A DNA stretch of 64,000 nt from IMG/VR virus record IMGVR_UViG_3300034141_000082; one strand, written 5' to 3'. Origin of the DNA: a virus. The position numbers and the translations under genes are program-made. This document shows positions 6,215-57,539 of this stretch, piece by piece (within the stretch, counting starts at the first letter, position 1; each line of letters starts with the position of its first letter). The notes under the pieces are model-generated. The model saw nothing but the letters and a program-made list of their open reading frames with translations, searched no databases and was not told where the DNA came from.

Positions 6215-6580
6215 TCATTCTCCTTCGGTGGGGATGAGAGGGCGGTACGGGTTGATGAAGCGGTCGGGGTCGGGGTACGACTCCAGCGTGGTGGCGATCT
6301 GGGCGCGGAAGAAGTCCTGCACGTGGGGCTGGACCAGCTTGTAGGCCCAGTCCTTCAGCCGCGCACAGTCCTCCTCGGTGAGGTGCGTGTCGTCGATGTG
6401 CGGACCCTGCGCGTCGATGGAGAAGCGGCCGGCGCTGTGGATCTGGACGCCGGCGGGCATCATCAGCATGGCGCCGTCCTGGGTCACGAGGAAATGGTAG
6501 TCGTCCAGGAAAATGGGCATGATGAGCGCGCCGTCAAGATGCGCGAAATCAGCTGCCCCGCTCAGCGACTCGGTCGCCAT
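6215..6580 (-). CDS. Hypothetical protein
   Basis: GAGGAGG RBS. Confidence 0.65.
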   Translation of the reverse strand: MATESLSGAADFAHLDGALIMPIFLDDYHFLVTQDGAMLMMPAGVQIHSAGRFSIDAQGPHIDDTHLTEEDCARLKDWAYKLVQPHVQDFFRAQIATTLESYPDPDRFINPYRPLIPTEGE

Positions 6581-7259
6581 GTGCCCTCCTCAGCTGGTGA
6601 GCGCCCACGTCGGCGGCCACCGGTGCGGGTCCGATTACTCGTGCTGCTCTCAGATTACCGTTGGCAGTAATTCCCTCGCACTCCACGCGAACCCTTCCGG
6701 TCAGCGGGCCGGCGTAGCGGGCCACGGCCTTCGGTCGGCGGTTCTCGTCGACCACGAAGAGAAATCCCTTGTGCGCGAGGCAGGTGTAGACGTGCGGGAA
6801 CTTCACCTTGAACGCGGCGCTGGAGTAGCCGCCGGCGACGCTGCGGATCACAATGCCCTCGGCGCCGTCCGCCGCCGCCCGCTCCCAGGCGAGGTGCACC
6901 GGGGCCGCGGGAAGCGGGTCGAAGCCGGCCTCGACCAGCGTGTGTAGGCGGGCGGGGAACGACTGGTCGCTGGACAGGTCGAACGGCACCCACGAGCCGC
7001 CGCCGGTGCGCAGCGACGAGAGCGCGCTCTCCCACGTTCCGGTGCCGACCAGCTCGCCGTCGACCAGCGTGCCGACCGGCATGTCCGGCAGGCCCGCGGG
7101 GGCCGGCGCGCGGTGCCCACCACGGGTGAGCCCGTACGGTCCGTCAGCGGCCCAGACGACGGCCAGGCGGACACCATCCAGCTTGCTCTGCGCGAGCCAG
7201 CCAGAGCCCAGGTACGGGCTGATGGAGGCCGCCTTGGTCGAGACGTTGAGCTTCACCAC
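6549..7259 (-). CDS. Minimal ATP-dependent DNA ligase (236 aa)
   Basis: Motif I SKLDGVR, III VDGELV, IIIa PFDL, IV EGIVIR, V FKVK; short OB-like tail; GGAGG RBS before GTG 7259. Confidence 0.8.
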   Translation of the reverse strand: MVKLNVSTKAASISPYLGSGWLAQSKLDGVRLAVVWAADGPYGLTRGGHRAPAPAGLPDMPVGTLVDGELVGTGTWESALSSLRTGGGSWVPFDLSSDQSFPARLHTLVEAGFDPLPAAPVHLAWERAAADGAEGIVIRSVAGGYSSAAFKVKFPHVYTCLAHKGFLFVVDENRRPKAVARYAGPLTGRVRVECEGITANGNLRAARVIGPAPVAADVGAHQLRRAHGDRVAERGS

Positions 7260-7435
7260 GGGGACTTCACCTCCCAGGCTTGGACGATGTAGGGGTAGAG
7301 CGGGGCGTGCGAGAGCAGGTTCGACTCGCGCGCGACAGCCTCGGCGTGGGCCTTGCTCTCGTAGAGCGAGCACAGCAAGTGGTGCTCGTACCCGGGCCGC
7401 TCCTCGTGAATGAAGAAGACGCCGTAGACCGTCAC
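7253..7435 (-). CDS. Hypothetical protein
   Basis: Overlap-coupled between Ku and the ligase. Confidence 0.6.
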   Translation of the reverse strand: MTVYGVFFIHEERPGYEHHLLCSLYESKAHAEAVARESNLLSHAPLYPYIVQAWEVKSPW

Positions 7436-8262
7436 GACAGCAGGTCCGCTTCGAGCAGCGCTTCCAGGTCCGCCGTCGCCGCGTTCTCTGCGAACGTGAC
7501 GCGCTCGCCGCGGGGCTTGACCAGCGCCTCGGCACCGGCTGCCTCCGCCTCGTTCGCGGCACGGCGCAGCGCCTCGCGGCCCGGGTCGATGGCGAGCTCG
7601 GCGATCTCGTCACGGGTGACCGGCTCGGCGGCCATGCTGAACATCGCCCGCGCCCGGTCGACCATGCGAGGGTCGGCGTCCGGCGGCTCGATCGGCGCGG
7701 CCCGCAGGTCGGCCGCGGGCACGAGCTCCACCATCGTGAGCAGGCCGTTGTGCGCGCCGATCCGGTAGAGCTTGGCGACGCTGCGCGATGCCCACGCGGT
7801 GACCAGCACCAGGCCGTCGTCCTCGATGGCCCGCACCAGCCCGAGGTAGGCGACGGCGTCGCCGGGGGCCGGCGTGAGCCAGTACAGGTTGCTCGACTCC
7901 ACGGCGCTGTCGCGCAGGTCGTAGGGGTCGACGGCGTGCGTCTGCATCACGTCACGCAGCGGGGCGACGTCGAGCAGGCGGTCGGCCTGCGCCGACGCGG
8001 CCAGCGGCACGAGGGCGCCGGTGTCGGACTTGTAGGCCCGGACCTCCTCGCCGACGACGTGCTGGCCGCCGGCGGAGCACACAGCGCAGAAGCGCTCGCT
8101 CTGAATCGGGGTCGCCTCGTGCGGACCGTCCTCGGTGCCCTTGCAGAAGGTGCTGGCGGAGGGCGCCTTGTAGACCCCGGAGTACACGCTGACCGTGATG
8201 CTCATCGGGCCCACGGACAGGACGACGTTGCTGCGACTGGAGCGCTTGCTGGCGGGCTGCAT
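7432..8262 (-). CDS. ku: Ku-like DNA end-binding protein
   Basis: Colinear by eye with bacterial Ku: LSVGPMSITVSVYSG, PIQSERFCAVC, EVRAYKSDTG.LV, YWLTP...AY.GL.RAI, ADLEALLEA; AGGAGG RBS. Confidence 0.85.
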   Translation of the reverse strand: MQPASKRSSRSNVVLSVGPMSITVSVYSGVYKAPSASTFCKGTEDGPHEATPIQSERFCAVCSAGGQHVVGEEVRAYKSDTGALVPLAASAQADRLLDVAPLRDVMQTHAVDPYDLRDSAVESSNLYWLTPAPGDAVAYLGLVRAIEDDGLVLVTAWASRSVAKLYRIGAHNGLLTMVELVPAADLRAAPIEPPDADPRMVDRARAMFSMAAEPVTRDEIAELAIDPGREALRRAANEAEAAGAEALVKPRGERVTFAENAATADLEALLEADLLS

Positions 8263-8273
8263 GGTGCCTCCTC

Positions 8274-9215
8274 TCAGAATTCGGTTTCGCCGACGTCGAT
8301 CAAGTCCTTCAACGTCTGGCAGTCGAGCAGGTCGGCGCTGGAGCAGATGCGGATCAGCGCGGTCATCTCGTGCGCCACCGGTGGTCGGCCGGTCGCCTCG
8401 ACGAACGCGGCCGACATCAGCGGCAGCACCGGGTCGGGCAGCGGGTTGATGTCGCCCAGCGCCTTCGCCACCTCGCGCAGCAGCGCCAGGTCGCGCCGGT
8501 GCAGGCTCGTCACCGAGGCGACGGACTCCATCGACCACTCCGACCGCTCCGCGAACAGGAACAGCGCCAGCGCGACGCTGCGGGCCGTGGACGGCGCGCC
8601 GCCGCCGCGGGTCCAGCGCAGGTGCCAGGGGGAGATGCAGTCCCGGGTGGAGCAGGAGACGTGCACGCTGCCCCGGCCGCCGCCCATGTCGACGCACATC
8701 AGCGTGGTCATGATGTAGTGCCGGATGGACTCGCGCCGGCCGTCGGGGGTGGTGATGCGACGGGAGTTGCGGATGATGCACTGCCCCTTGGTCGAATAGG
8801 CCAGCTGGCCGCGCTCGTTCGTGAGCAGGTCGTGCAGGCCGGGCAGGATCTTCTCGGCCGCGTTCACCATCGCCAGGCCCTTGCGGTTGCCGATGGCGAT
8901 GTTCAGAGACTTGGTCAGGTTGCTCTGGCGGACAGGCTTCACGTCGTGCCAGGTGAATCCGTCGGGGCTGAACCGGCCGCCCCAGACGCCGATCTCGTTG
9001 CCGGCTTCGGCGGTCTCGCCGCAGACCTGCCGGATTGGGCAGGCGTTGCAGTTCTGCGCCGCGATCCAACGAGCCATGAACGACTCGGTGGTCTGGTCGA
9101 AGAGCTTCTCCTGGCCGTTGCAGGGGGTTGGTCGGTGGAGGTCGAGAGCCTGCTCCATCGGGTTTCCCCGACGCCAGAGCGTCTCCCAATCCGCGTGACG
9201 TGGGACGCTGACCAT
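8274..9215 (-). CDS. WhiB-family domain fused to a degenerate HNH/His-Cys Zn loop and a possible HTH
   Basis: C..(x23)..CxxC(x5)C and GVWGG; later CSTRDCISPWHL; SMESVASVTSLHRRDL. Confidence 0.75.
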   Translation of the reverse strand: MVSVPRHADWETLWRRGNPMEQALDLHRPTPCNGQEKLFDQTTESFMARWIAAQNCNACPIRQVCGETAEAGNEIGVWGGRFSPDGFTWHDVKPVRQSNLTKSLNIAIGNRKGLAMVNAAEKILPGLHDLLTNERGQLAYSTKGQCIIRNSRRITTPDGRRESIRHYIMTTLMCVDMGGGRGSVHVSCSTRDCISPWHLRWTRGGGAPSTARSVALALFLFAERSEWSMESVASVTSLHRRDLALLREVAKALGDINPLPDPVLPLMSAAFVEATGRPPVAHEMTALIRICSSADLLDCQTLKDLIDVGETEF

Positions 9216-12958: not shown

Positions 12959-13222
12959 TCAGGTGCCGGCCCGCCCCGGGGCGCTCTGCGGCCGGGCCAT
13001 CGCGCTGGCGACGACCTCGACGTCCGCCTTGGCGTCGCCGACGAGCTCGGTGGCGATCTCCTTGCGACGCTCGGGCTCGTTCGTCAGGTAGTTGACGAAG
13101 TGGGCCCGGTTGATCCGGCCGCGACTTCCGACCTCGACGCCCTGCTCCTTCAGCCAGGCCCGCACCTCGCTGGCCTGGTAGGGCTGGACGTCGCTGGATG
13201 GCTGGGTGCTCTTGCTGCTCAT
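12959..13222 (-). CDS. Lsr2-like DNA-binding domain without the N-terminal oligomerisation domain
   Basis: EVRAWLKEQGVEVGSRGRI matches the Lsr2 C-domain. Confidence 0.8.
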   Translation of the reverse strand: MSSKSTQPSSDVQPYQASEVRAWLKEQGVEVGSRGRINRAHFVNYLTNEPERRKEIATELVGDAKADVEVVASAMARPQSAPGRAGT

Positions 13223-14524: not shown

Positions 14525-15001
14525 TCAGGCGCCCTGCAACAGGGCGTTGATCTCTCGGTCCAGGTTCTGCGCGATCTGCTCCGCGTGCTGCTTCAGCGCG
14601 ATGCCCAGCAGCAGGGTGAAGCACTGCAACTGGTCCAGCGGGAAGCGCGTCACGACGGAGTGGGGGACGTGCTCGTCGGGGTCCGGCGGCTCGTGGCTGA
14701 AGAGCCGGATGTCCAGCACCGTGGACTGCTTCAGCAGCTGGATGTCGCCGATCCCGCGGACGATGCCCTCGGTGCCCTGCACTGTGTCGCGCAGCATCTC
14801 GTGGTCGATGCGCCAGGCGACGGTCTCCGTGCTCTCGTGGAAGTTGAGCTGCACGGCGAACGGGTCGGCCACGTCCCACTGGAGGACGGTCTTGATCTTG
14901 CCCACCAGGGAGCCGTCGCTGGCGTCGATCAGCTCGGCGACCGACTCCATGTGGACTCGGCTGGATGGGCTCTCCGGGGTTGTGCTGGGCTTCTCGCTCA
15001 T
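14525..15001 (-). CDS. SsgA-like (SALP) cell-division/sporulation protein, copy 1
   Basis: LQWDVADPFAVQLNF..VAW....ML......GIGDI; C-terminal LDREINALL. Confidence 0.75.
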   Translation of the reverse strand: MSEKPSTTPESPSSRVHMESVAELIDASDGSLVGKIKTVLQWDVADPFAVQLNFHESTETVAWRIDHEMLRDTVQGTEGIVRGIGDIQLLKQSTVLDIRLFSHEPPDPDEHVPHSVVTRFPLDQLQCFTLLLGIALKQHAEQIAQNLDREINALLQGA

Positions 15002-15040
15002 CTCCAATATCTCCTCTCTCGATGTGTGATTTCAGTCAGG

Positions 15041-30099: not shown

Positions 30100-30199
30100 A
30101 TCGGCACCTTCTTTCATCTGTGATGTATGGGGGAGTGTTGTCCGATGGACACTACGATCCACCGACTTGCCCAGCCGATGAACCATAGAGAGCAGCGGA

Positions 30200-30511
30200 T
30201 TAGTAGTCGAGGTTCTGCGAGCGGTAGAAGTCGACCAGCCTGGAGAGAACCTTGCCAGCGAAAATCAGGTCGTCATCGGTGATACGGCCGAAGTCGTGCT
30301 GGAAGCGAAGCTCAGTAGCAAGGAAATCGTCCGAGCCGAACGCGCATACCGGGCTGTGTCGATACTGCCATTCGGCCGGGATCTCCTCGGCACTCGCGTG
30401 CCAGAGGACATCGGCCACCGAGAAGAATGCGTTGAGGGCGGAACCCCAGGGATCGAAGCCGTCGTCGATCTCACGGAACAGTGCGAGTGCGGGATTCTTC
30501 GTCTTGACCAT
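30200..30511 (-). CDS. Hypothetical phage protein
   Basis: DPWG...F.VA.VL...W.YR pattern; GGAGG RBS. Confidence 0.7.
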   Translation of the reverse strand: MVKTKNPALALFREIDDGFDPWGSALNAFFSVADVLWHASAEEIPAEWQYRHSPVCAFGSDDFLATELRFQHDFGRITDDDLIFAGKVLSRLVDFYRSQNLDY

Positions 30512-30512
30512 C

Positions 30513-30758
30513 TCAAACCTCCGATGCGAAGAACTTGCGAACCCATTCGGTGCCGAACTTGCCGAATCGGCTGGGGTCGGTCACGAATGTCTGGGAGCCG
30601 TCGGGCAGGACCATGACGACGGGGCCGCCGTACGTGCTGCCGACGAATTGGATCTTCTGAGTGGGGTCGTCGCCGTAGGTGACATCGGCGGTGACGCTGA
30701 ATTGCCCAGCGATTCCCGCGTGGCGCCGGACGTTCTCGACCTTGGATTTCCACTGCAT
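30513..30758 (-). CDS. Hypothetical phage protein
   Basis: FVGSTYGGPVVM...TFVTDP.RFG; GGAGG RBS. Confidence 0.7.
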   Translation of the reverse strand: MQWKSKVENVRRHAGIAGQFSVTADVTYGDDPTQKIQFVGSTYGGPVVMVLPDGSQTFVTDPSRFGKFGTEWVRKFFASEV

Positions 30759-30821
30759 ATCTCAGTCCTCCGAATGTCTAATCTCTGATATCTCGGCACG
30801 TTCCTTACTGCCTCACTGCTT

Positions 30822-30868
30822 AATGTATCGGCCAGCTGAGCCGGGGAATTAATCCGCCATTCGGGTGA
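30822..30868 (-). promoter_or_regulatory. Repeated promoter-like motif
   Basis: TCACCCGAATGG N26 CGATACATT. Confidence 0.75.
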
Positions 30869-31007
30869 CGCTACAGGACGCTGTAGCCCTCACGCTCGAA
30901 GTGGCTCCGGCGCACGCTGTGCTCCGTTCGGTCGATGCACGCCCACCGGATCTCCCGCTCACCCTTGCGAGCGATGATGGTCAGCGCCGGATCGGCGCCA
31001 GCCAGTC

Positions 31008-31691
31008 TCACGCCGCACCGATGTAGTCGGCGAGCTGGGCCTGGTCTGCGATTGCGTCCAGAGCTGCGGCCCGGATCTGCGGCGTGATCATGACGATGGG
31101 CAGACCCTTGGCCGTGAGGTACTGCCGGATCACCGCGTCCTGCTCCTCGCGTCGCGTCAGCGGCTTGACCGGCTTGACCGGCTTCTCTCCGGTGGTCTGA
31201 GCCGGGACAACCGCCGTGGGGTCGGCGGTCGTCCCAGCGGTTTCGGTGGAGTCGACGTCGGCCGTGGCGACCGTGACGTCATTCTCCTGAACGGGCCGAC
31301 CGTGATAGTCGTCGTCAACCCAGACTGCCGAGTAGGTGATCTGTCCGGCAGCCGCCAGCCCGTAGCGGGCACGATCTTCTGCCGTCACGCTGGACTCCCG
31401 AACGATCATCTCGTCTCGCATGAGGACTCGGCGCATCGTCGGCCGGACCTCGGCATCCTCGGGAATGTCGTCGGTAACCCTACCCGATCCCAACGGGCTG
31501 ACGTTCGGCGCCGTGGACCAGGAGTAGACCTTTCGGCCCGCCGTGAGGGAACGCCGTCCCAGCGGCATCGGGTCGTTGTCCGGGATGATGAAGGATTTGC
31601 GACCAACCGTCATCGTCTCGCCCCGGTCGACGATGCCGGGCGTGTAGCGGTAGACCGGAGGAGCGGAGCGGTGATTGCCTCGCTTGCCCAT
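31008..31691 (-). CDS. Hypothetical protein
   Basis: Start-associated leader and GAGG RBS. Confidence 0.65.
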   Translation of the reverse strand: MGKRGNHRSAPPVYRYTPGIVDRGETMTVGRKSFIIPDNDPMPLGRRSLTAGRKVYSWSTAPNVSPLGSGRVTDDIPEDAEVRPTMRRVLMRDEMIVRESSVTAEDRARYGLAAAGQITYSAVWVDDDYHGRPVQENDVTVATADVDSTETAGTTADPTAVVPAQTTGEKPVKPVKPLTRREEQDAVIRQYLTAKGLPIVMITPQIRAAALDAIADQAQLADYIGAA

Positions 31692-31736
31692 GATCCGTAC
31701 CTCTTTCATCTCTGATTTGTGATTGCGTCTCTGAGT

Positions 31737-31782
31737 ATGTTATCGGCTTGTGTAGCGGACACTTAAGCCGCCATTCGGGTGA
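31737..31782 (-). promoter_or_regulatory. Repeated promoter-like motif
   Basis: TCACCCGAATGG N25 CGATAACAT. Confidence 0.75.
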
Positions 31783-31787
31783 CGTTC

Positions 31788-31922
31788 CTAGCGGATGCCC
31801 AGCTCACGGCGGATGTGCGAGGAGGGACGGCCGGTCGCGCGGGAGATCTGGTGGACGGCCCGGTTGGAGCGGGTGCCCTGGGCCATCGCGAGACGGTACG
31901 CAGCCTTGATGTCGATCAACAT
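31788..31922 (-). CDS. Small HTH-like peptide
   Basis: AVHQISRATGRPSSHIRRELG. Confidence 0.55.
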   Translation of the reverse strand: MLIDIKAAYRLAMAQGTRSNRAVHQISRATGRPSSHIRRELGIR

Positions 31923-31938
31923 GTCGGATCTCTCTTTC

Positions 31939-32015
31939 ATCTGTGATGTATAGGTGGCCTGCCCACCATAGCCAGGCTCAACCATAGTTGAGCTTGACTA
32001 AAGCCGTCAGGTCAG
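31939..32015 (-). repeat. ~77-bp intergenic direct repeat, copy A
   Basis: Closely matches 32324-32401; contains hairpins. Confidence 0.85.
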
Positions 32016-32311
32016 TAGTCCAGCGGACCGGCGCACATTCCGCAGGTGGAGTCCTCGGGCAGGTCGGCCCCGAGAACGATCTTGGGGAAGTCGCCCGAGT
32101 CGAACGACTCTTCGTCGGCCCGATCGATCTGGAAAGCCGCCGCGATTTCATCCAAGTTGTCCTCGGCAGTCACGTCGCCCATCCAGTCGGCCTTGACCAT
32201 CGCCCAACCGTCGTACTTCTCACCCTCGCCCGTGGGGAGAGCTTCCCCGATGCATCCGGGGCAGTACAGGTCGGCGTTGAACGTGTAGGCCACGATCGCG
32301 GTGAGTCGCAT
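32012..32311 (-). CDS. Hypothetical Zn-binding phage protein
   Basis: ADLYCPGC...IDRADEESFDSGDFPK...CGMC. Confidence 0.7.
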   Translation of the reverse strand: MRLTAIVAYTFNADLYCPGCIGEALPTGEGEKYDGWAMVKADWMGDVTAEDNLDEIAAAFQIDRADEESFDSGDFPKIVLGADLPEDSTCGMCAGPLDY

Positions 32312-32323
32312 GTCGGTTGCCCA

Positions 32324-32401
32324 ATCTGTGATGTGTATAGGTGGCCTGCCCACCATAGCCACTCTCACCATAGGTGAGGATGACTAAAGCTGTCAGGTCA
32401 G
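32324..32401 (-). repeat. ~78-bp intergenic direct repeat, copy B
   Basis: Closely matches 31939-32015. Confidence 0.85.
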
Positions 32402-32517
32402 AGCTTGATGTCGAGAACGGTTCCCTCGCAGGCGTTCGTCATTGCGACGATTCGCGCACGGTCGGCCGGGCTCATGTTGCGGAAGATTCGAGCTATCTGG
32501 TCGGGTGGGGGGAGCAT
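32398..32517 (-). CDS. 39-aa hypothetical peptide (not in ORF track)
   Basis: MLPPPDQIARIFRNMSPADRARIVAM... Confidence 0.5.
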   Translation of the reverse strand: MLPPPDQIARIFRNMSPADRARIVAMTNACEGTVLDIKL

Positions 32518-32523
32518 GACGGG

Positions 32524-32673
32524 TCAGCCCTTCAATTCGTTGAGAACGGTACTCCAGGTGCCCATCGGGGCGATGTGGGAAGGTGCGACGGCGCCGCACC
32601 CCCTGCACTCACGTGTTCGGCGGGAGTGGGATTCGTGGGTGCCCAGGACGGGGCACGTACCGATCTCAGCCAC
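32524..32673 (-). CDS. Small Cys/His peptide
   Basis: CPVLGTH..H...CRGC. Confidence 0.5.
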   Translation of the reverse strand: MAEIGTCPVLGTHESHSRRTRECRGCGAVAPSHIAPMGTWSTVLNELKG

Positions 32674-32806
32674 GGTGAGCGTACTTGGAGTCGATGTTGA
32701 CCGTGGGATCACCCCAGGGATCGACGTAGGTCGCTGCGACGTGGTCCTCGTAGGGGTGGTGCGGGTAACCGCAGGAGGAGCAGGTGGGAACCTTTCGCAC
32801 GCCCAT
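32666..32806 (-). CDS. Small Cys/His peptide (not in ORF track)
   Basis: MGVRKVPTCSSCGYPH; start-associated leader. Confidence 0.55.
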   Translation of the reverse strand: MGVRKVPTCSSCGYPHHPYEDHVAATYVDPWGDPTVNIDSKYAHRG

Positions 32807-32843
32807 GATCGTTCTCTCTCTCATCTGTGATGTATGGGATGTA

Positions 32844-33044
32844 TCAGGAGACTGCGAGCAGTGCGGCAGTCAGACGCTCGTTCTGTGCGGTCAATCTTTC
32901 GATTTCTGCAACCATCGCACGCACATCACGGGCGACACTACCAGCGGTACCCGAGACGTTCGCGCAAGTAACGGTGTCATTCGGGTGCGCTTGTCCTACT
33001 GCCCAGAGAAACGAACCGGGGGCCGGTGCCAATTCGGTTGCCAT
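32844..33044 (-). CDS. Hypothetical protein
   Basis: First gene after the 33100 promoter motif; start-associated leader. Confidence 0.6.
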   Translation of the reverse strand: MATELAPAPGSFLWAVGQAHPNDTVTCANVSGTAGSVARDVRAMVAEIERLTAQNERLTAALLAVS

Positions 33045-33099
33045 GATCCGTTCTCTCTTTCATCTGTGATGTATGGGGCGGTTCGCTTGGCTTCTAGTT

Positions 33100-33146
33100 C
33101 TATTATCGGCTGCTGCCCTATCTTACTGTATAGCCCATCTGGGTGA
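33100..33146 (-). promoter_or_regulatory. Repeated promoter-like motif (variant)
   Basis: TCACCCAGATGG N26 CGATAATAG. Confidence 0.65.
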
Positions 33147-33561
33147 CTCTCTGTCCTGGCTTCCGGTGTCTCTCCCCCTCCCTATCTGTATCGGCTTGCC
33201 TGCCCGGTTCCTTTAGCCTCCCGTCTCCCTTTCTTTCCGTCCGGCCCCGGTGGCCCTTGCCCTCCCCCTTGCTTGTAGTACTAGTATGGCATGGCTCCAC
33301 ACCAGAACCTATAGCCTGAGCGTCTTTCTGGGCCAATCTCAGGCACCTCATTGCCGACCCTACCGAAAAGCCGTGACGGGTCTGCTAGCGCGTCTGCGGG
33401 CATCCTACGGCTTCTCAGTGCCGTCCCAGAATCTACCGTCGGTCAATAGATCCCCCCGGGGTTCCCGCCACGGGTTCTGGCACCTAAGAAGTACGTCAGC
33501 ACCTTCCCAGATACGTCAGTCGTTTTTTCGCCATAAAGACATATAGTAGACCGTAGTGCCC

Positions 33562-34002
33562 TCACCGCGATCCTTCCAGGATATCACAAATGGCCTGGTC
33601 AAGCGCTTCGGCGACGCGGTCCGCGTGCGTATCGACATTCATCACCGCACGCACCGCATTCACGAAGATTTTCAAGTCACTGACCATGATTCGATAGGTG
33701 AAGCGCATGCCCTTCTCGTTGATGAAGCGCAGAATGGCGAAATTGGGGTCGAGCTGGTCGTAGTCGAACCGCACCAGGCCGACGCCGGTCGGCCGGCAGG
33801 TGCTGATGTGCACGAGCAGGTCGAAGGCGAAGACCGCCTGCTGGACGTCCTTCTGGTTCGCCGCCATCGTGAGCCGCACGGCCACCGGGTCGGCGCGCGT
33901 AAATTCGAGCTCAGCGGTCACCGCGCACCACCCGCTACCGGGGCCGTTGCGGTCGAGCTGGTAGATGGGCATGGGCCTGTAAATATCCGTCATGTCGTCC
34001 AC
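33562..34002 (-). CDS. SsgA-like (SALP) protein, copy 2
   Basis: VTAELEFTRADPVAVRLTM...VFAFDLL...GVGLV; LDQAICDIL terminus. Start may be 33993. Confidence 0.7.
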   Translation of the reverse strand: MDDMTDIYRPMPIYQLDRNGPGSGWCAVTAELEFTRADPVAVRLTMAANQKDVQQAVFAFDLLVHISTCRPTGVGLVRFDYDQLDPNFAILRFINEKGMRFTYRIMVSDLKIFVNAVRAVMNVDTHADRVAEALDQAICDILEGSR

Positions 34003-34053
34003 TGTCGCTCAGCGTGGGGGTGCTCGCCCCCGCCCAGACCTACTTTGAACGAC

Positions 34054-34437
34054 ATGAGCCCATCCCCCGACGGCACGACGCCGGCCTCCGACACGGCGGA
34101 CGCCGAATTCGACACGACTGCCTACGACCGTGCCCTGGACCGCATTTTCGCGGATGAGGACCTGGAAGAGGTCATCGGCCTGGCGATCGGCGCCGGCTCG
34201 ATGTGCTGGACCAACATCTCCGGGGCCGGAGAATTCGACAGTCTGGCGGCGACCACGATCAACGACGCTGTCCTGCGTCGCATCGCCGCCGAGCGCATCC
34301 GCACCTCGTACCCGCGCCCGGACGGCGACACCTTCGTGCTCGGCCCCTACGTCATCGCCAGCACCGGCCACCCGCGGCCGGACACCGTCATCAACTGGGG
34401 TGGCGTGAATTTCGTCGTTGCTCCCACCGAGGTCTGA
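34054..34437 (+). CDS. Hypothetical phage protein, probably leaderless
   Basis: TACTTT 7 nt before ATG; IG.AIGAGSMCW...G.GEF motif. Confidence 0.65.
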   Translation: MSPSPDGTTPASDTADAEFDTTAYDRALDRIFADEDLEEVIGLAIGAGSMCWTNISGAGEFDSLAATTINDAVLRRIAAERIRTSYPRPDGDTFVLGPYVIASTGHPRPDTVINWGGVNFVVAPTEV

Positions 34438-34440
34438 GCC

Positions 34441-35175
34441 GTGGCCGCCTCGACCGACGCCACGCTGATGGCGGCACGCTTCGCGCCGTGGGCGACCACG
34501 CGCAAGTCCGTGCTGGCCGAGGCGGCCACCACCCTCGGCCTCACCCCGCGGCCGAACTGGCGCGGCCCCTCGCACGAGGAGCTGCGCGTCGAGCTGGAGA
34601 TCCTGGCCGCCGGCACGGGGGTCACCATCATCGGCCGCGACCGCCGCGACATCCGCGAGGGCCCCGCCTCCCGGTACCAGACGCAGGCCGCCTGGACGGT
34701 GGCCGCGGACGGCGCCGCCCCGGGCCGGATCACCTGGGACATCGACTCGGGCAAGATCGGCGGCCAGATCCGCGGGCCGCAGTACCGCCCGTTCGTCGAG
34801 GGCCTGCCGGCCGCCCTGGACAAGGCCCGGTCTGAAGCCAAGATCACCCGTAACAACCTCCACGACCAGATCGCACTCACGATCATGGACGCCGCCCCCG
34901 CGGCCCCCTACTCCAAGCTCGCCCACATCGGCGCCGGCAGCTGGATGGTCATGCCGGCCGGCGCCGACTTCGAGCGGTTCTGCCGCTTCATGCGCGCCAT
35001 CGGCATGCCGGTGCGCGACAAGATCTTCGTGGACGGTCCGCAGCGCAGCATGCTCGCCGTCCTGGCCGCCTCCCTGGAGAGCGCGGAGAGCCGCTTCGGC
35101 ACCCGCTCGGGCTGGCTCGCCGTCGCCCGCCGGTCGCACGCCGACCTGCGCGCCGCCGTCATGGAGTCCTCGTGA
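34441..35175 (+). CDS. Hypothetical protein
   Basis: Strong phage codon bias. Confidence 0.7.
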   Translation: MAASTDATLMAARFAPWATTRKSVLAEAATTLGLTPRPNWRGPSHEELRVELEILAAGTGVTIIGRDRRDIREGPASRYQTQAAWTVAADGAAPGRITWDIDSGKIGGQIRGPQYRPFVEGLPAALDKARSEAKITRNNLHDQIALTIMDAAPAAPYSKLAHIGAGSWMVMPAGADFERFCRFMRAIGMPVRDKIFVDGPQRSMLAVLAASLESAESRFGTRSGWLAVARRSHADLRAAVMESS

Positions 35176-35414
35176 TCGCGGCCCTGATCGCTCTGCTTCT
35201 CGGCCTGATCTCCATCAGCGCCGTGCTCTGGCTGGTCACCAAGCAGGAGGCAGCGATGAAGTGCGTCTGCGGCGATGCAATTTCTTATCACAACGGGCCG
35301 GACGGTAGCTGCACCGCTGTCCACGCACCGCACCGAGACGACGACTTCGGCGTCTCGTGGGTCTGCGGCTGCCCCGGGTTCACCACCCCCAAGATCGTGT
35401 CGAGGAGAGCCTGA
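35172..35414 (+). CDS. TM + CxCxxxxxxH..C..CxC Zn-finger-like protein
   Basis: CVCGDAISYH...C...CGCPGF. Confidence 0.6.
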   Translation: MIAALIALLLGLISISAVLWLVTKQEAAMKCVCGDAISYHNGPDGSCTAVHAPHRDDDFGVSWVCGCPGFTTPKIVSRRA

Positions 35415-35830
35415 TGACCGGCCTGTCCATCGCCCTGGTGCTCGCGTATTTCGCGATCGGCCAGGTGCTGTCTGCGGTGATCGTGCGCCGTGTCGTCAAC
35501 CTCAACCGGCGCTACCAGTTCACCCGGGGCGACTTCAATTTTAACGACGTGCGCTGGGTGGTGGGCGCCGGCCTGTTCTGGCCGATCATCGGCTTCTACG
35601 TGATCTACCACCTGCACCGCTACGCCCGCCTCTTCTGGAAGAACGAGTTCTGTCTGTGCGTCCACGGCCGAGGCCGGCACGCCGACTCGCCGTCCGGCAA
35701 GCACACCGGGCACTGCACGGTCCGCCGGCCGATCCCGACCCGGCTCCTGTTCGACCCCGAAGCTGAAATCCCCTGGGAGCGCTGCGAGTGCGTCGACTTC
35801 CGCCCCGTCCCCCCGGAGGAGAACCGATGA
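35414..35830 (+). CDS. TM + Zn-finger-like protein
   Basis: CLCVH...H...HC...CECVDF. Confidence 0.6.
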   Translation: MTGLSIALVLAYFAIGQVLSAVIVRRVVNLNRRYQFTRGDFNFNDVRWVVGAGLFWPIIGFYVIYHLHRYARLFWKNEFCLCVHGRGRHADSPSGKHTGHCTVRRPIPTRLLFDPEAEIPWERCECVDFRPVPPEENR

Positions 35831-38199
35831 TCGGCCCCTACGAGATCGTCCGGGCCTACATCGACGCCGGCTGGGACGCCCCCTTCCCGCTGCCCGCCGG
35901 GAAGAAGTTCCCCCCGCCGGAGGGCTTCACCGGCGCCGGCGGCCGGTACCCCACGAACGAGGACTTCGAGCGCTGGATCGACCAGGACCGCTACGGCAAC
36001 TACGGCGTACGCGCCCCGCTCGGCGTCATCGGCATCGACTGGGATTTCTACAAGGGCCACCAGCTCTACGACTGGGTCATGCCCTACATATCCCGGGCCC
36101 CGCGGTCGACGTCCAAGGGCGGGGACGACGAGTCCGCGATCTACTGGGTGCGCGTCCCGGTCAATCTCGTCGAGCAGCTGCGCGACCGGCACTTCGCCGA
36201 GGCCGGCACCGAGGTCATCCGGGCTCAGCACCGCTACGCCGTCGTCTGGCCCTCGGTCCACCCGGACACCGGCCAGACCTACCGCTGGTACGCGGCCGGC
36301 TCGGAGACGCCGCTCGACGGCCCGCCCGAGCTCGACGACCTCCCCGCGGTCACGCAGGAGGTGCTCACCAAGGTCATCGCCGAGTACGGCGGTGGCCGCC
36401 GCACCGGTAAGTCGAGCGGGGTGAGCGGGCGCGGAGCTGGGGAGCTCGCCCCTGCGGTGGAGCTCAGCGAGCTCGGGAGCCTGAAGGCCCTGGTCCGCGG
36501 CTACCACCCCTACGACGTCGAGGTCGGCCCCGAGCTGACGGCCCGCCGTGCGATCTTCGAGGCCAGCCGGACCGGCGACATCCTGGGCGACCTCGACGAC
36601 CTCGTCGGCGGGGCTGACGCCTGGGAGTCCTCGGTCGGCACACTGAGCTTCAAGCTCATCTCGCTGGCCCTGGCCCCCTGGAGCGCGCTCACGCTGGAGC
36701 GGGTTGTCGAGCTCGTCGAGGAGAACGGCCCCACCTGCGAGCTCGCGGTGCAGCGCGGCGTGCACGACCACCGCGGTACCTGCTGGACGGCGGCCGACAA
36801 CCGGGTCCGGGCCGAGCGCTCCATCGAGCAGCACGACGGCGGGTGGACCCAGCTCCCGGCCGAGCTCCGCCGCGATGTCCGCGAAGCCGCCGATGACAGC
36901 ACCGCGGCCCCGGCCGATGTCAGTTCACAGACATCGGCGCCGGCCGCCCCGGCCTTCGACGACGAGGACGACGACTTCTTCGACGAGCCCGTCCGGCGCG
37001 ACCCGGCCGCCATGTTCCTGCGCCTGGACCGCAGCCTCACCCGCCAGGCCCGCCCGCGGCCCATCGCCGGCGGCCTGCTCTACGAGAACGTCTTCAACAT
37101 CGTCTCGGGTCGGGGCGGCCTGGGAAAATCCACCGCGGTCCAGGCGATCTGCGCTAAGCACGGCCCGACTCTGTGGCTGTCCACCGAGGAGAGCTGGGGC
37201 GCCGTCCACGACCGCGCGCTGGTGCTGGGGTACGAGGACTTTTACGCCCCGAACGAGCCCCTTACCGTCATGGACTCGCCGGTAATTTTCCAGTGGCTCG
37301 CCACAACGCCCGATGTCCGCACCGTAGTGATCGACAATCTCCAGGCTTTCTTCAAATTGGGCGCCGATTCAAACAATAACACCGTGGTCCGCGACGCCTT
37401 CCTGGAGTTCTACCGCCAGGCCGAGGCGCTGCGCATGACCGTGGTCGGCGTCTCCCACCCGCCGAAGTCCGGCGCCACGGCGGTGCAGGGGTCCGCCGCC
37501 TGGGAAGAGGTGGCTCGCCACGTCCTGAAGATGCAGGAGCTTGACGAAGAGGGCTACCGCGGCCTCGCGCTGAGCGTCGCGAAGACCAACCTGCACACCC
37601 GGGCGTACGACACCTGGCCCGTCACCATCGAGACCGTCGAGATCCCCATCCCCTCGGCCGACGGGACCATCGAGACGACGAGCCGAGCGCACTTCCCCGA
37701 GAGCGACGTCCTGCGCGAGCTGCTCCGCGGCTACATGGGCGGGCACGTCGCCGACGCCAAGGCCGCCGCCGGCCAGCGTGCGAACGCCAGGCACCGCCCA
37801 GAAGAACTCCCGCAGATCGACGACCTCGACCTGCTCATCACCCACAACTGGGTCGAGCCCTCGATCATCGCCGCTCGATGGAACATCCCGGTGAACCGCG
37901 TGCGAGGGCTGGCCGAGATGCACGACCTCGTCCTGCACACCGCGGCGGACGGCCGGCTGGTCTGGGTTGCCGAGGAAGGCGACGACACCTGGCTCGCCGG
38001 CGCGGCCGTGCCGACCGGCACCTTCGAGGTCGACCAGCTACTCCGCCAGCTCCAGGTCACCCAGACCACGCACCTCACCTGGCTCATCTCGGCCGCCGGC
38101 CTGGACGCCGACTACCGCGACACCGCGGTCACGATCACGAACCGCGAGCGCGACGAGGTCGACCAGGCCCTGCGCGACGCCGGACTGGAGGAACTGTGA
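35827..38199 (+). CDS. Bifunctional primase/polymerase fused to an AAA/RecA-like helicase
   Basis: PFPLPAGKKFPP..GN.G.R...IDWD..YAVVWPSVHP; Walker A GRGGLGKS; VVIDN; HPPK..GSAA. Confidence 0.88.
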   Translation: MIGPYEIVRAYIDAGWDAPFPLPAGKKFPPPEGFTGAGGRYPTNEDFERWIDQDRYGNYGVRAPLGVIGIDWDFYKGHQLYDWVMPYISRAPRSTSKGGDDESAIYWVRVPVNLVEQLRDRHFAEAGTEVIRAQHRYAVVWPSVHPDTGQTYRWYAAGSETPLDGPPELDDLPAVTQEVLTKVIAEYGGGRRTGKSSGVSGRGAGELAPAVELSELGSLKALVRGYHPYDVEVGPELTARRAIFEASRTGDILGDLDDLVGGADAWESSVGTLSFKLISLALAPWSALTLERVVELVEENGPTCELAVQRGVHDHRGTCWTAADNRVRAERSIEQHDGGWTQLPAELRRDVREAADDSTAAPADVSSQTSAPAAPAFDDEDDDFFDEPVRRDPAAMFLRLDRSLTRQARPRPIAGGLLYENVFNIVSGRGGLGKSTAVQAICAKHGPTLWLSTEESWGAVHDRALVLGYEDFYAPNEPLTVMDSPVIFQWLATTPDVRTVVIDNLQAFFKLGADSNNNTVVRDAFLEFYRQAEALRMTVVGVSHPPKSGATAVQGSAAWEEVARHVLKMQELDEEGYRGLALSVAKTNLHTRAYDTWPVTIETVEIPIPSADGTIETTSRAHFPESDVLRELLRGYMGGHVADAKAAAGQRANARHRPEELPQIDDLDLLITHNWVEPSIIAARWNIPVNRVRGLAEMHDLVLHTAADGRLVWVAEEGDDTWLAGAAVPTGTFEVDQLLRQLQVTQTTHLTWLISAAGLDADYRDTAVTITNRERDEVDQALRDAGLEEL

Positions 38200-56450: not shown

Positions 56451-57539
56451 TCACGCGGTCCCGCGCAGTAACCGAAGGTTTCCGCCGTTCTCGGCCGGCG
56501 GGGTCAGCAGTTCGGGGCGGTGCTCCACCACGTAGCAGTCGCGCTCGTCCTCGCAGTCGTGCATGGGGTGCAGCTCCCCGGTCATCGAGCTCCACCCGCA
56601 CGCCACCTCGGCCAGCCCGACCCGCACGTAGGTGCTGGTGACCGTGGAGCTCATCGAGTGCCCGGCCCACGTGGCCGCCACCACGAAGCTGGACGCGCGC
56701 TCCATCCGGGTGACCGCGGTGTGCCGCATCCAGTGGCAGGAGACGCCCAGCTCGGCGCCCCACCCGGTGATGGCCCTCAGCACGTCCCAGTCGTCCTCCA
56801 GGCGGTGCCTGGACCAGTCGTAGAGGGTGGACGTGGGTCGGGCCAGCTCGGCCGCCAGCGACGCCGACAGGGGCAGCACGCGGGTCTTGCGGCCCTTCTC
56901 GGTCACCATCACCGTGCGGGTCGCGGCCCGCACCGCCCCGGGCTCCAGGTTCAGCAGGCCCTCCCGCCTGGACCCGGTCTCCAGCAGCCAGCGCAGCATC
57001 CACATCGTGCGCTCGTGGTGGCGGGTCGCCACGGTCAGCAGTTCGGCGGTCTGGGTCCGGGACAGCGCGTGCCGCTCGGACTGCCCGCGGGCGGGCTTGG
57101 GGACCGACAGGGCGACGTTGCGCTCGACCAGGCCGTCCTTCAGCGCCGCGCCGAACAGGTGCCGGGCCGCGGCGACGGCGTGCTCGGCCGAGGACTGCCC
57201 GCCGTGGTGGCGCCGGCGGACCGCGGTGTCGCGCGCGGTGCGGGCCAGCTCGGCCACGTCGCTGGGCACGATGTCGCGCAACGGACGCTCGCTCCAGCTG
57301 GACTCGATCAAGGTCAGGGCCCGGCCCCAGGCGCTGATGGTGCCCGGCGTCAGGCCGGATCGGATGCGGGGAAGGTAGTCACCCACCGTGATGTCTGCGG
57401 TCATGGTCCAGGCATCGGCACGCCGTCCGGCGGCCTTGAACGCCCCGCCACCCACTGTGAGTAGCCGATTACTTTTGCTGGTGTCCGAGGGGGGACTCTG
57501 CCGGTCACTCTCAGTTGCCTGTCCGTTTCGTCGTGTCAT
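56451..57539 (-). CDS. int: Tyrosine recombinase/integrase (alternative start 57404)
   Basis: Catalytic R (TGSRR), K (EKG), HxxR (HWMRH), H (WAGH), Y (STYV). Confidence 0.88.
   Translation of the reverse strand: MTRRNGQATESDRQSPPSDTSKSNRLLTVGGGAFKAAGRRADAWTMTADITVGDYLPRIRSGLTPGTISAWGRALTLIESSWSERPLRDIVPSDVAELARTARDTAVRRRHHGGQSSAEHAVAAARHLFGAALKDGLVERNVALSVPKPARGQSERHALSRTQTAELLTVATRHHERTMWMLRWLLETGSRREGLLNLEPGAVRAATRTVMVTEKGRKTRVLPLSASLAAELARPTSTLYDWSRHRLEDDWDVLRAITGWGAELGVSCHWMRHTAVTRMERASSFVVAATWAGHSMSSTVTSTYVRVGLAEVACGWSSMTGELHPMHDCEDERDCYVVEHRPELLTPPAENGGNLRLLRGTA
57479..57497 (-). other. Candidate attP core matching a tRNA 3' end (tRNA-Leu(GAG)-like)
   Basis: AGTCCCCCCTCGGACACCA = end of T-loop + CCCCC + CTCGGAC + A + CCA; next to or inside int. 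The tRNA-Leu assignment is from memory. Confidence 0.75.

Follow-up and report, generated by a model that had tools for sequence, protein, structure and literature searches.

A divergent, phage-only SsgA-like protein encoded at the DNA end of an uncultured phage lineage

Introduction

Filamentous actinomycetes use proteins of the SsgA/SsgB family for placing division septa, and the SsgA-like proteins (SALPs) positively regulate where FtsZ is placed in those actinomycetes that sporulate. The host proteins SsgA and SsgB interact, and SsgB recruits FtsZ (PMC8061694). In SsgB, residue E120 bonds R55 and stacks on Y35, fixing the angle of helix alpha-3; the Y35H substitution blocks division, V115G, G118V, and E120G lead to tilted or rotated septa, and FtsZ binding is retained in all of these mutants, so that changes to the alpha-3 anchor rotate the division plane (PMC8061694).

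SALP genes of phages are of a kind already known. An ssgA homologue has been reported in phage Dagobah (PMC7650747), and phage ssgA homologues have been listed among phage development genes (PMC10117723); no functional test of a phage SALP was found in the literature searched. A search of BFVD returned SALP-fold proteins of cultured actinophages, among them the Streptomyces phages BillNye, TunaTartare, and Ibantik (E-values of 1e-6 to 1e-4), and tblastn with a cellular SALP returned Faust, Annadreamy, Limpid, Beuffert, and Ankus. The Faust and Ankus proteins matched the Pfam SsgA profile at 57–60 bits.

Here we analyzed a 64,000-nt stretch of DNA from an uncultured actinomycete phage (IMG/VR record IMGVR_UViG_3300034141_000082; hereafter the window), which carries two SALP genes, copy 1 and copy 2. 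Copy 2 is ordinary in kind, being one more phage SALP, and it represents a real, divergent, phage-only subfamily that is functional and has probably long been vertically inherited. What is new is the proof of its fold, the definition of its family and synteny, the residue differences from SsgB, and a mapped DNA end.

Results

The earlier note had proposed a gene for a second SsgA-like protein on the minus strand at positions 33562–34002. This ORF is present, encodes 146 aa if counted from the GTG at 34002, and contains the motifs quoted for it (AELEF, DPVAVRL, FAFDLL, and GVGLV), but its GTG start did not stand. The GTG is out of frame in one relative (L002), and the start codon in all relatives corresponds to the ATG at 33993; we therefore took this ATG as the true start. 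Copy 2 thus spans 33562–33993 (minus strand, stop codon TGA at 33562–33564) and encodes 143 aa (P0001). Its dN/dS was 0.22–0.25 when compared to relatives with 87% and 61% identity, indicating purifying selection and hence a functional gene, and together with the conservation of the ORF this value rules out a pseudogene or a chance ORF. The copy 2 gene contained no TTA codons, so bldA-type control is not indicated.

Profile searches placed copy 2 in the SsgA family. The Pfam SsgA profile (PF04686; cut-off of 25 bits) matched it at 26.8 bits with an E-value of 5e-6 over profile positions 1–93 of 98, and all six members of its family matched the same profile, with a best E-value of 1.8e-13. A profile built from the six family clusters aligned over its full length with S. 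coelicolor SsgA/SsgB (6slc, E-value of 4e-11) and T. fusca SsgB (3cm1, E-value of 2e-9). The AF2 model of copy 2, built from the family alignment (pLDDT of 83.7), had the topology of SsgB, with the seven-strand sheet and three helices of its Whirly-like 'bell'. SsgB chains ranked first in a Foldseek search with this model (TM of 0.69–0.79; 6suj, 6slc, and 3cm1), VIA-align superposed it on SsgB with a Z of 16.4 and an rmsd of 2.6 Å over 117 residues, and 30 of 30 ESM Atlas neighbours were SsgA clusters. The SsgA-like assignment, for which a profile search returning a non-SALP fold had been named as the refuting outcome, is backed by profile, fold, and language-model searches, all of which returned SALPs instead.

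Copy 2 did not score as an orthologue of a named host SALP. Among the NCBIfam equivalogs for SsgA to SsgG, the best match of copy 2 was SsgD (NF052496) at 25 bits, below the cut-off of 185. Its context is not the conserved chromosomal ssgB locus; it lies among phage genes (terminase, PrimPol-helicase, DnaE, and integrase). When 1.84 billion representative proteins were searched exhaustively with phmmer, the protein's own cluster and three others with 37–42% identity were recovered, and a word-indexed search added two further family members with 87% and 61% identity. The subfamily is phage-only and rare, with six clusters in approximately 15 billion proteins. Searches with copy 2 against 50,697 phage records (tblastn) returned nothing, and scans for its family in IMG/VR, JGI metagenomes, and GTDB genomes gave no matches.

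Comparison with SsgB revealed a shared framework with altered residues at key positions. Copy 2 and SsgB of S. coelicolor (6SLC/6SUJ) and T. fusca (3CM1) are alike in fold and topology (Z of 16.4 and 15.9, rmsd of 2.6–2.8 over 117 residues), are of comparable length, are both acidic, and have the DPxAV, FAxDLL, GxGxVR, and C-terminal LD motifs in common, whereas their sequence identity is 19–23% and the VWP of SsgB is replaced by F-D-x-D-x-L-(D/N/S)-P. Residues common to all SALPs (DPxAV, FARDLL, and GDVR) are kept in the copy 2 family at D, P, A, V, F, A, D, L, L, G, V, and R, whereas only three of the six members retain D70. In both profile and family alignments, the position of Y35 is aliphatic (V/I/L/M); that of R55 is an invariant F ("FAFDL"), and that of E120 is an invariant D (D125). 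The alpha-3 anchor thus appears, from these alignments, to be rebuilt in the copy 2 subfamily, so an altered rather than canonical activity would be expected. The loss of Y35 and R55 could equally reflect a function unrelated to FtsZ.

Among phage SALPs, those of BillNye, TunaTartare, Ibantik, Faust, Annadreamy, and Ankus have the same fold as copy 2. These phages, however, have genomes of 120–130 kb and are unrelated to the present lineage, and their SALPs are shorter (120–125 aa), present in one copy per phage, and encoded away from the genome end. Dagobah gp31 (QMP84409.1; relatives P0010–P0014) is, like copy 2, a phage SALP encoded near a PrimPol replication gene. Unlike copy 2, it is canonical, with a Pfam score of 75 bits and with R55, G118/E120, and the GGE loop kept, and its gene is single-copy and lies within an operon, which is not the case for copy 2. 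No match was found by tblastn between Dagobah and copy 2, and a search of genome contigs with Dagobah gp31 returned nothing.

The position of copy 2 is constant in every relative, down to 35% identity: the SALP gene diverges from a gene for a 244-aa protein, which is followed by the PrimPol-helicase and an RNase T-like exonuclease, with an extra small ORF preceding the 244-aa gene in some related phages. In agreement with its earlier placement at a divergence point, the start of copy 2 lies 60 nt from the first plus-strand gene at 34054. The replication arm (34054–38199, plus strand) comprises a 127-aa ORF, the 244-aa protein, small ORFs, and the PrimPol-AAA_25 helicase (35788–38199, plus strand), followed by RNase T-like and phrog_284 exonucleases. 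The 244-aa protein (34441–35175, plus strand), which heads the replication operon in all relatives, had no match in Pfam, PHROG, or NCBIfam; its AF2 model (pLDDT of 87, pTM of 0.82) gave a best PDB match with a Z of 6.5.

The divergent control region (33994–34053), the 60 nt between the two start codons, is conserved at nearly every base, including in relatives whose proteins have just 35–40% identity. Toward the SALP gene it reads GACAGT-N7-ATG in the window and (G/C)A(C/G)AGT-N7-ATG in relatives, and toward the replication arm it reads TACTTT-N7-ATG, a spacing that corresponds to the geometry of actinobacterial leaderless promoters. Judged by this spacing, the boxes may be leaderless -10 boxes forming a back-to-back early promoter pair. 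A scan for a sigma-70-type consensus upstream of copy 2 found no site. An imperfect 31-nt inverted repeat with the GC-rich centre GGGGGCGAGCACCCCC extends across both start codons; the GC-rich hairpin was rejected as a structural element, being absent in two relatives (L005 and L008). Elsewhere, an 11-nt motif, ACATCACAGAT, occurs in five copies at 30116–33072 (0.35 expected). Every copy is on the minus strand, where it precedes the ATG of one of five left-end genes by 15–19 nt, and a GA-rich stretch comes next. The motif resembles a start-associated or early-promoter element.

Downstream of copy 2, the 3' flank (33500–33561, minus strand) leads to the physical ends of the DNA. Nine contigs from eight runs and five family members stop at the homologous base, 56–60 nt past the SALP stop codon, and in three of these right-end contigs the sequence passes directly into that of an Illumina adapter, AGATCGGAAGAGC. 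Placed on the window, the right end reads ...CTGACGTATCTGGGAAGG and stops at 33502. The left end is given by a Logan contig from another run (L019), which starts at 33500 with GCTGACGTAC... and does not differ from the window over 900 nt; in one left-end contig that was end-repaired, the start is 2 nt further along. A single base, the T at 33501, separates the right and left ends, and an 8-nt repeat, CTGACGTA, is present on both sides. These positions point to unique, near-blunt virion DNA ends, and it is the joined form that the window and two ENA contigs show. A direct terminal repeat was ruled out because the assembly graph would then go on past the end, but ten contigs stop dead.

With the end approximately 60 nt past its stop codon, copy 2 is the terminal gene of the linear virion DNA, transcribed toward the end. 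Joining of the ends places it at the head of the long leftward arm, a sharper description than a divergence point. No intrinsic terminator was found in its 3' flank. At the left end, approximately 450 nt (33045–33499, GC content of approximately 59%) contained no convincing ORF, tRNA, or Rfam match and could hold packaging or replication signals.

Two genes elsewhere in the window touch on how such ends might be joined. A divergent Ku homologue (7432–8262, minus strand) matched TIGR02772 over its full length with an E-value of 3.6e-7, far under the cut-off, and a ligase-like ORF (6549–7256, minus strand) matched phrog_114 with an E-value of 1e-6 and an NHEJ ligase with an E-value of 0.0075. 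The mycobacteriophages Corndog and Omega circularize by end-joining. By analogy, the near-blunt ends and the Ku- and ligase-like genes make end-joining circularization a lead for this phage.

The location of copy 2, adjoining the replication operon and 60 nt from a DNA end, would also suit a Whirly-type nucleic-acid-binding protein acting in replication, end protection, or packaging, with no role in cell division. The SALP fold lies within the Whirly/MRP/PUR superfold, which formed the next tier of matches to the copy 2 model (Z of approximately 10 for MRP1/2 and 8–9 for Whirly proteins), and the Dagobah SALP gene lies two genes downstream of PrimPol. However, the copy 2 family is acidic (pI of 4.5–5.6, net charge of -2 to -10), and SsgB is far closer in structure (Z of 16.4) than any nucleic-acid binder, and we consider such a role very unlikely.

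Copy 1 (14525–15007, minus strand; P0008 is its 141-aa form) matched Pfam SsgA at 32.1 bits. It lies 18.6 kb from copy 2, in line with the 19 kb given earlier. When HMMs from four SALP groups were applied to the 692 ORFs of the window, these two ORFs alone matched. A 3329-aa protein with seven weak stretches (P0007) was rejected as a spurious match, being a Big_9/cadherin adhesin. The copies have Pfam SsgA, strand, and phage in common, whereas copy 1 has an insertion of approximately 12 residues in its second half and lies mid-array, beside thymidylate synthase ThyX (Thy1), DNMK-like, and Lsr2-like genes. An Lsr2-like gene is likewise found near the SALP gene of Faust. Searching phage records with copy 1 by tblastn gave a chance match only.

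Identity between the two copies was near nil, as the earlier description of copy 2 as highly divergent had it: BLASTP aligned just 20 C-terminal residues, and hhalign gave 21% identity with a probability of 57% and an E-value of 1e-4. By hhalign, each copy was nearer to cellular SALPs than to the other copy, with probabilities of 94.6% (E-value of 7e-8) for copy 2 and 89% for copy 1; copy 2 matched Dagobah-type SALPs at 94.8% (E-value of 5e-8). A maximum-likelihood tree of 17 sequences, with a single cellular clade because the genome scans gave nothing, did not divide the two copies at an 84/85 split, both falling to one side of it. Their branches were 1.7 and 2.8 substitutions per site long, and the program warned of long-branch attraction; on this tree, long-branch attraction and an old in-phage duplication cannot be separated. 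The independent acquisition of copy 2 proposed in the earlier note is thus neither shown nor excluded.

The lower GC content of copy 2 on which that proposal drew is real (61.6% versus 68.4% for the window), but it is common to the whole 30–34 kb stretch (59–64%), and the gene is 4–12 points under the neighbouring arm in all six relatives. Low GC content was therefore rejected as a mark of recent acquisition; being regional and lineage-wide, and with the gene's position fixed across deep divergence, it argues for long residence rather than recent uptake.

Both copies are retained in a related phage from run SRR16016013, with 87% identity for copy 2 and 78% for copy 1. Dagobah, Faust, and Ankus have one Pfam SsgA match each, so that two SALP copies in one phage are unusual in this small sample. 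These observations, together with the interaction of host SsgA and SsgB (PMC8061694), would fit two phage SALPs working as a pair in the manner of the host proteins, one localizing and the other recruiting FtsZ, a reading that covers the suggested agonist and antagonist roles. The genes are, however, 18.6 kb apart in different transcription contexts, and their co-occurrence was seen in one relative only, the contigs of distant relatives being too short to tell; we regard such a pair as decidedly doubtful. Different timing of the two copies, also suggested in the earlier note, is plausible from their positions, copy 2 heading an arm with a back-to-back promoter region of its own and copy 1 lying 19 kb downstream in a long array.

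An extended version of this pairing, to which we attach little probability, would be a phage-encoded two-component system for septum positioning, in which two SALPs that have diverged beyond mutual recognition act like SsgA and SsgB to re-aim host FtsZ, with the terminal copy 2 expressed first, lacking the R55/Y35 anchor and with a reoriented alpha-3. If this were true, infected hyphal compartments could be walled off or reshaped.

The other genes of the window are also those of a phage. The nearest relative of its large terminase subunit, from a mangrove-soil phage, was 31.6% identical; no nucleotide relatives were found among 50,697 phage records, and blastn of the 6-kb neighbourhood matched only 140 nt of a Gordonia phage PrimPol gene. 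An exact 24-mer search from the left end had no match in metagenomes, and tRNA and Rfam scans of the window returned nothing. ENA and JGI contigs with the same genes measure 76,538 and 76,530 nt, from which the genome is probably approximately 76.4 kb. The phage encodes a DnaE-type polymerase, the PrimPol-AAA_25 helicase, exonucleases, and a tyrosine integrase (56451–57539). Also present are a 313-aa protein (8274–9215, minus strand) with a WhiB-like N-terminal part (phrog_12112, E-value of 6e-8) and an 87-aa protein (12959–13222, minus strand) with an Lsr2 DNA-binding domain (Pfam, 28.9 bits).

The integrase makes expression of copy 2 from a prophage equally possible. Copy 2 might then be a morphogene of lysogenic conversion that changes how the host develops, in favour of the lysogen or its spread, for instance through hyper-septation or fragmentation, as occurs when SsgA is overexpressed, or through changed sporulation. 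The gene is moron-like, with its own control region, a place at the genome end, and a GC content under that of its neighbours in every relative; moreover, SsgA overexpression changes wall and morphology (PMC2440963), and Streptomyces pellets can be dispersed by prophage activity (PMC11302927). Nevertheless, the control region is back-to-back with that of the replication operon, for which silence would be expected in a lysogen, and no prophage copy of the gene was found in 185,579 species genomes. We judge lysogenic conversion to be unlikely.

Discussion

Development of the host restricts how far phages spread, and early in infection phages repress developmental genes (PMC10117723). Against this background, and given the homology to SALPs, the SsgB fold, the purifying selection, the fixed synteny, and the genome-end position observed for copy 2, our preferred reading, to which we give about an even chance, is that it is a phage SALP expressed early, which engages the FtsZ/SALP machinery of the host so that developmental septation is diverted or blocked. 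Its early expression, host target, and direction of effect are what we infer. Copy 2 would be transcribed, possibly as a leaderless message, from the compact back-to-back promoter region that it has in common with the replication operon, and would on that account be an early gene. Like host SsgA and SsgB, it would engage the FtsZ-based septation machinery, through either FtsZ itself or the host SALPs. Since residues required for the normal function of SsgB are missing from it, diversion or blocking of developmental septation and sporulation would be the most likely effect, and the infected hyphal compartment would stay productive as a result. The WhiB-like and Lsr2-like genes of the same phage were counted in favour of this developmental-modulator reading.

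The mapped ends fix the terminal place of copy 2 and show how the DNA ends are built in an uncultured 76-kb phage lineage. In the copy 2 subfamily, natural substitutions occur at exactly those SsgB positions whose mutation blocks or rotates division, and they offer a probe of alpha-3 geometry in septum placement; the subfamily is also a probe of how phages interfere with multicellular development.
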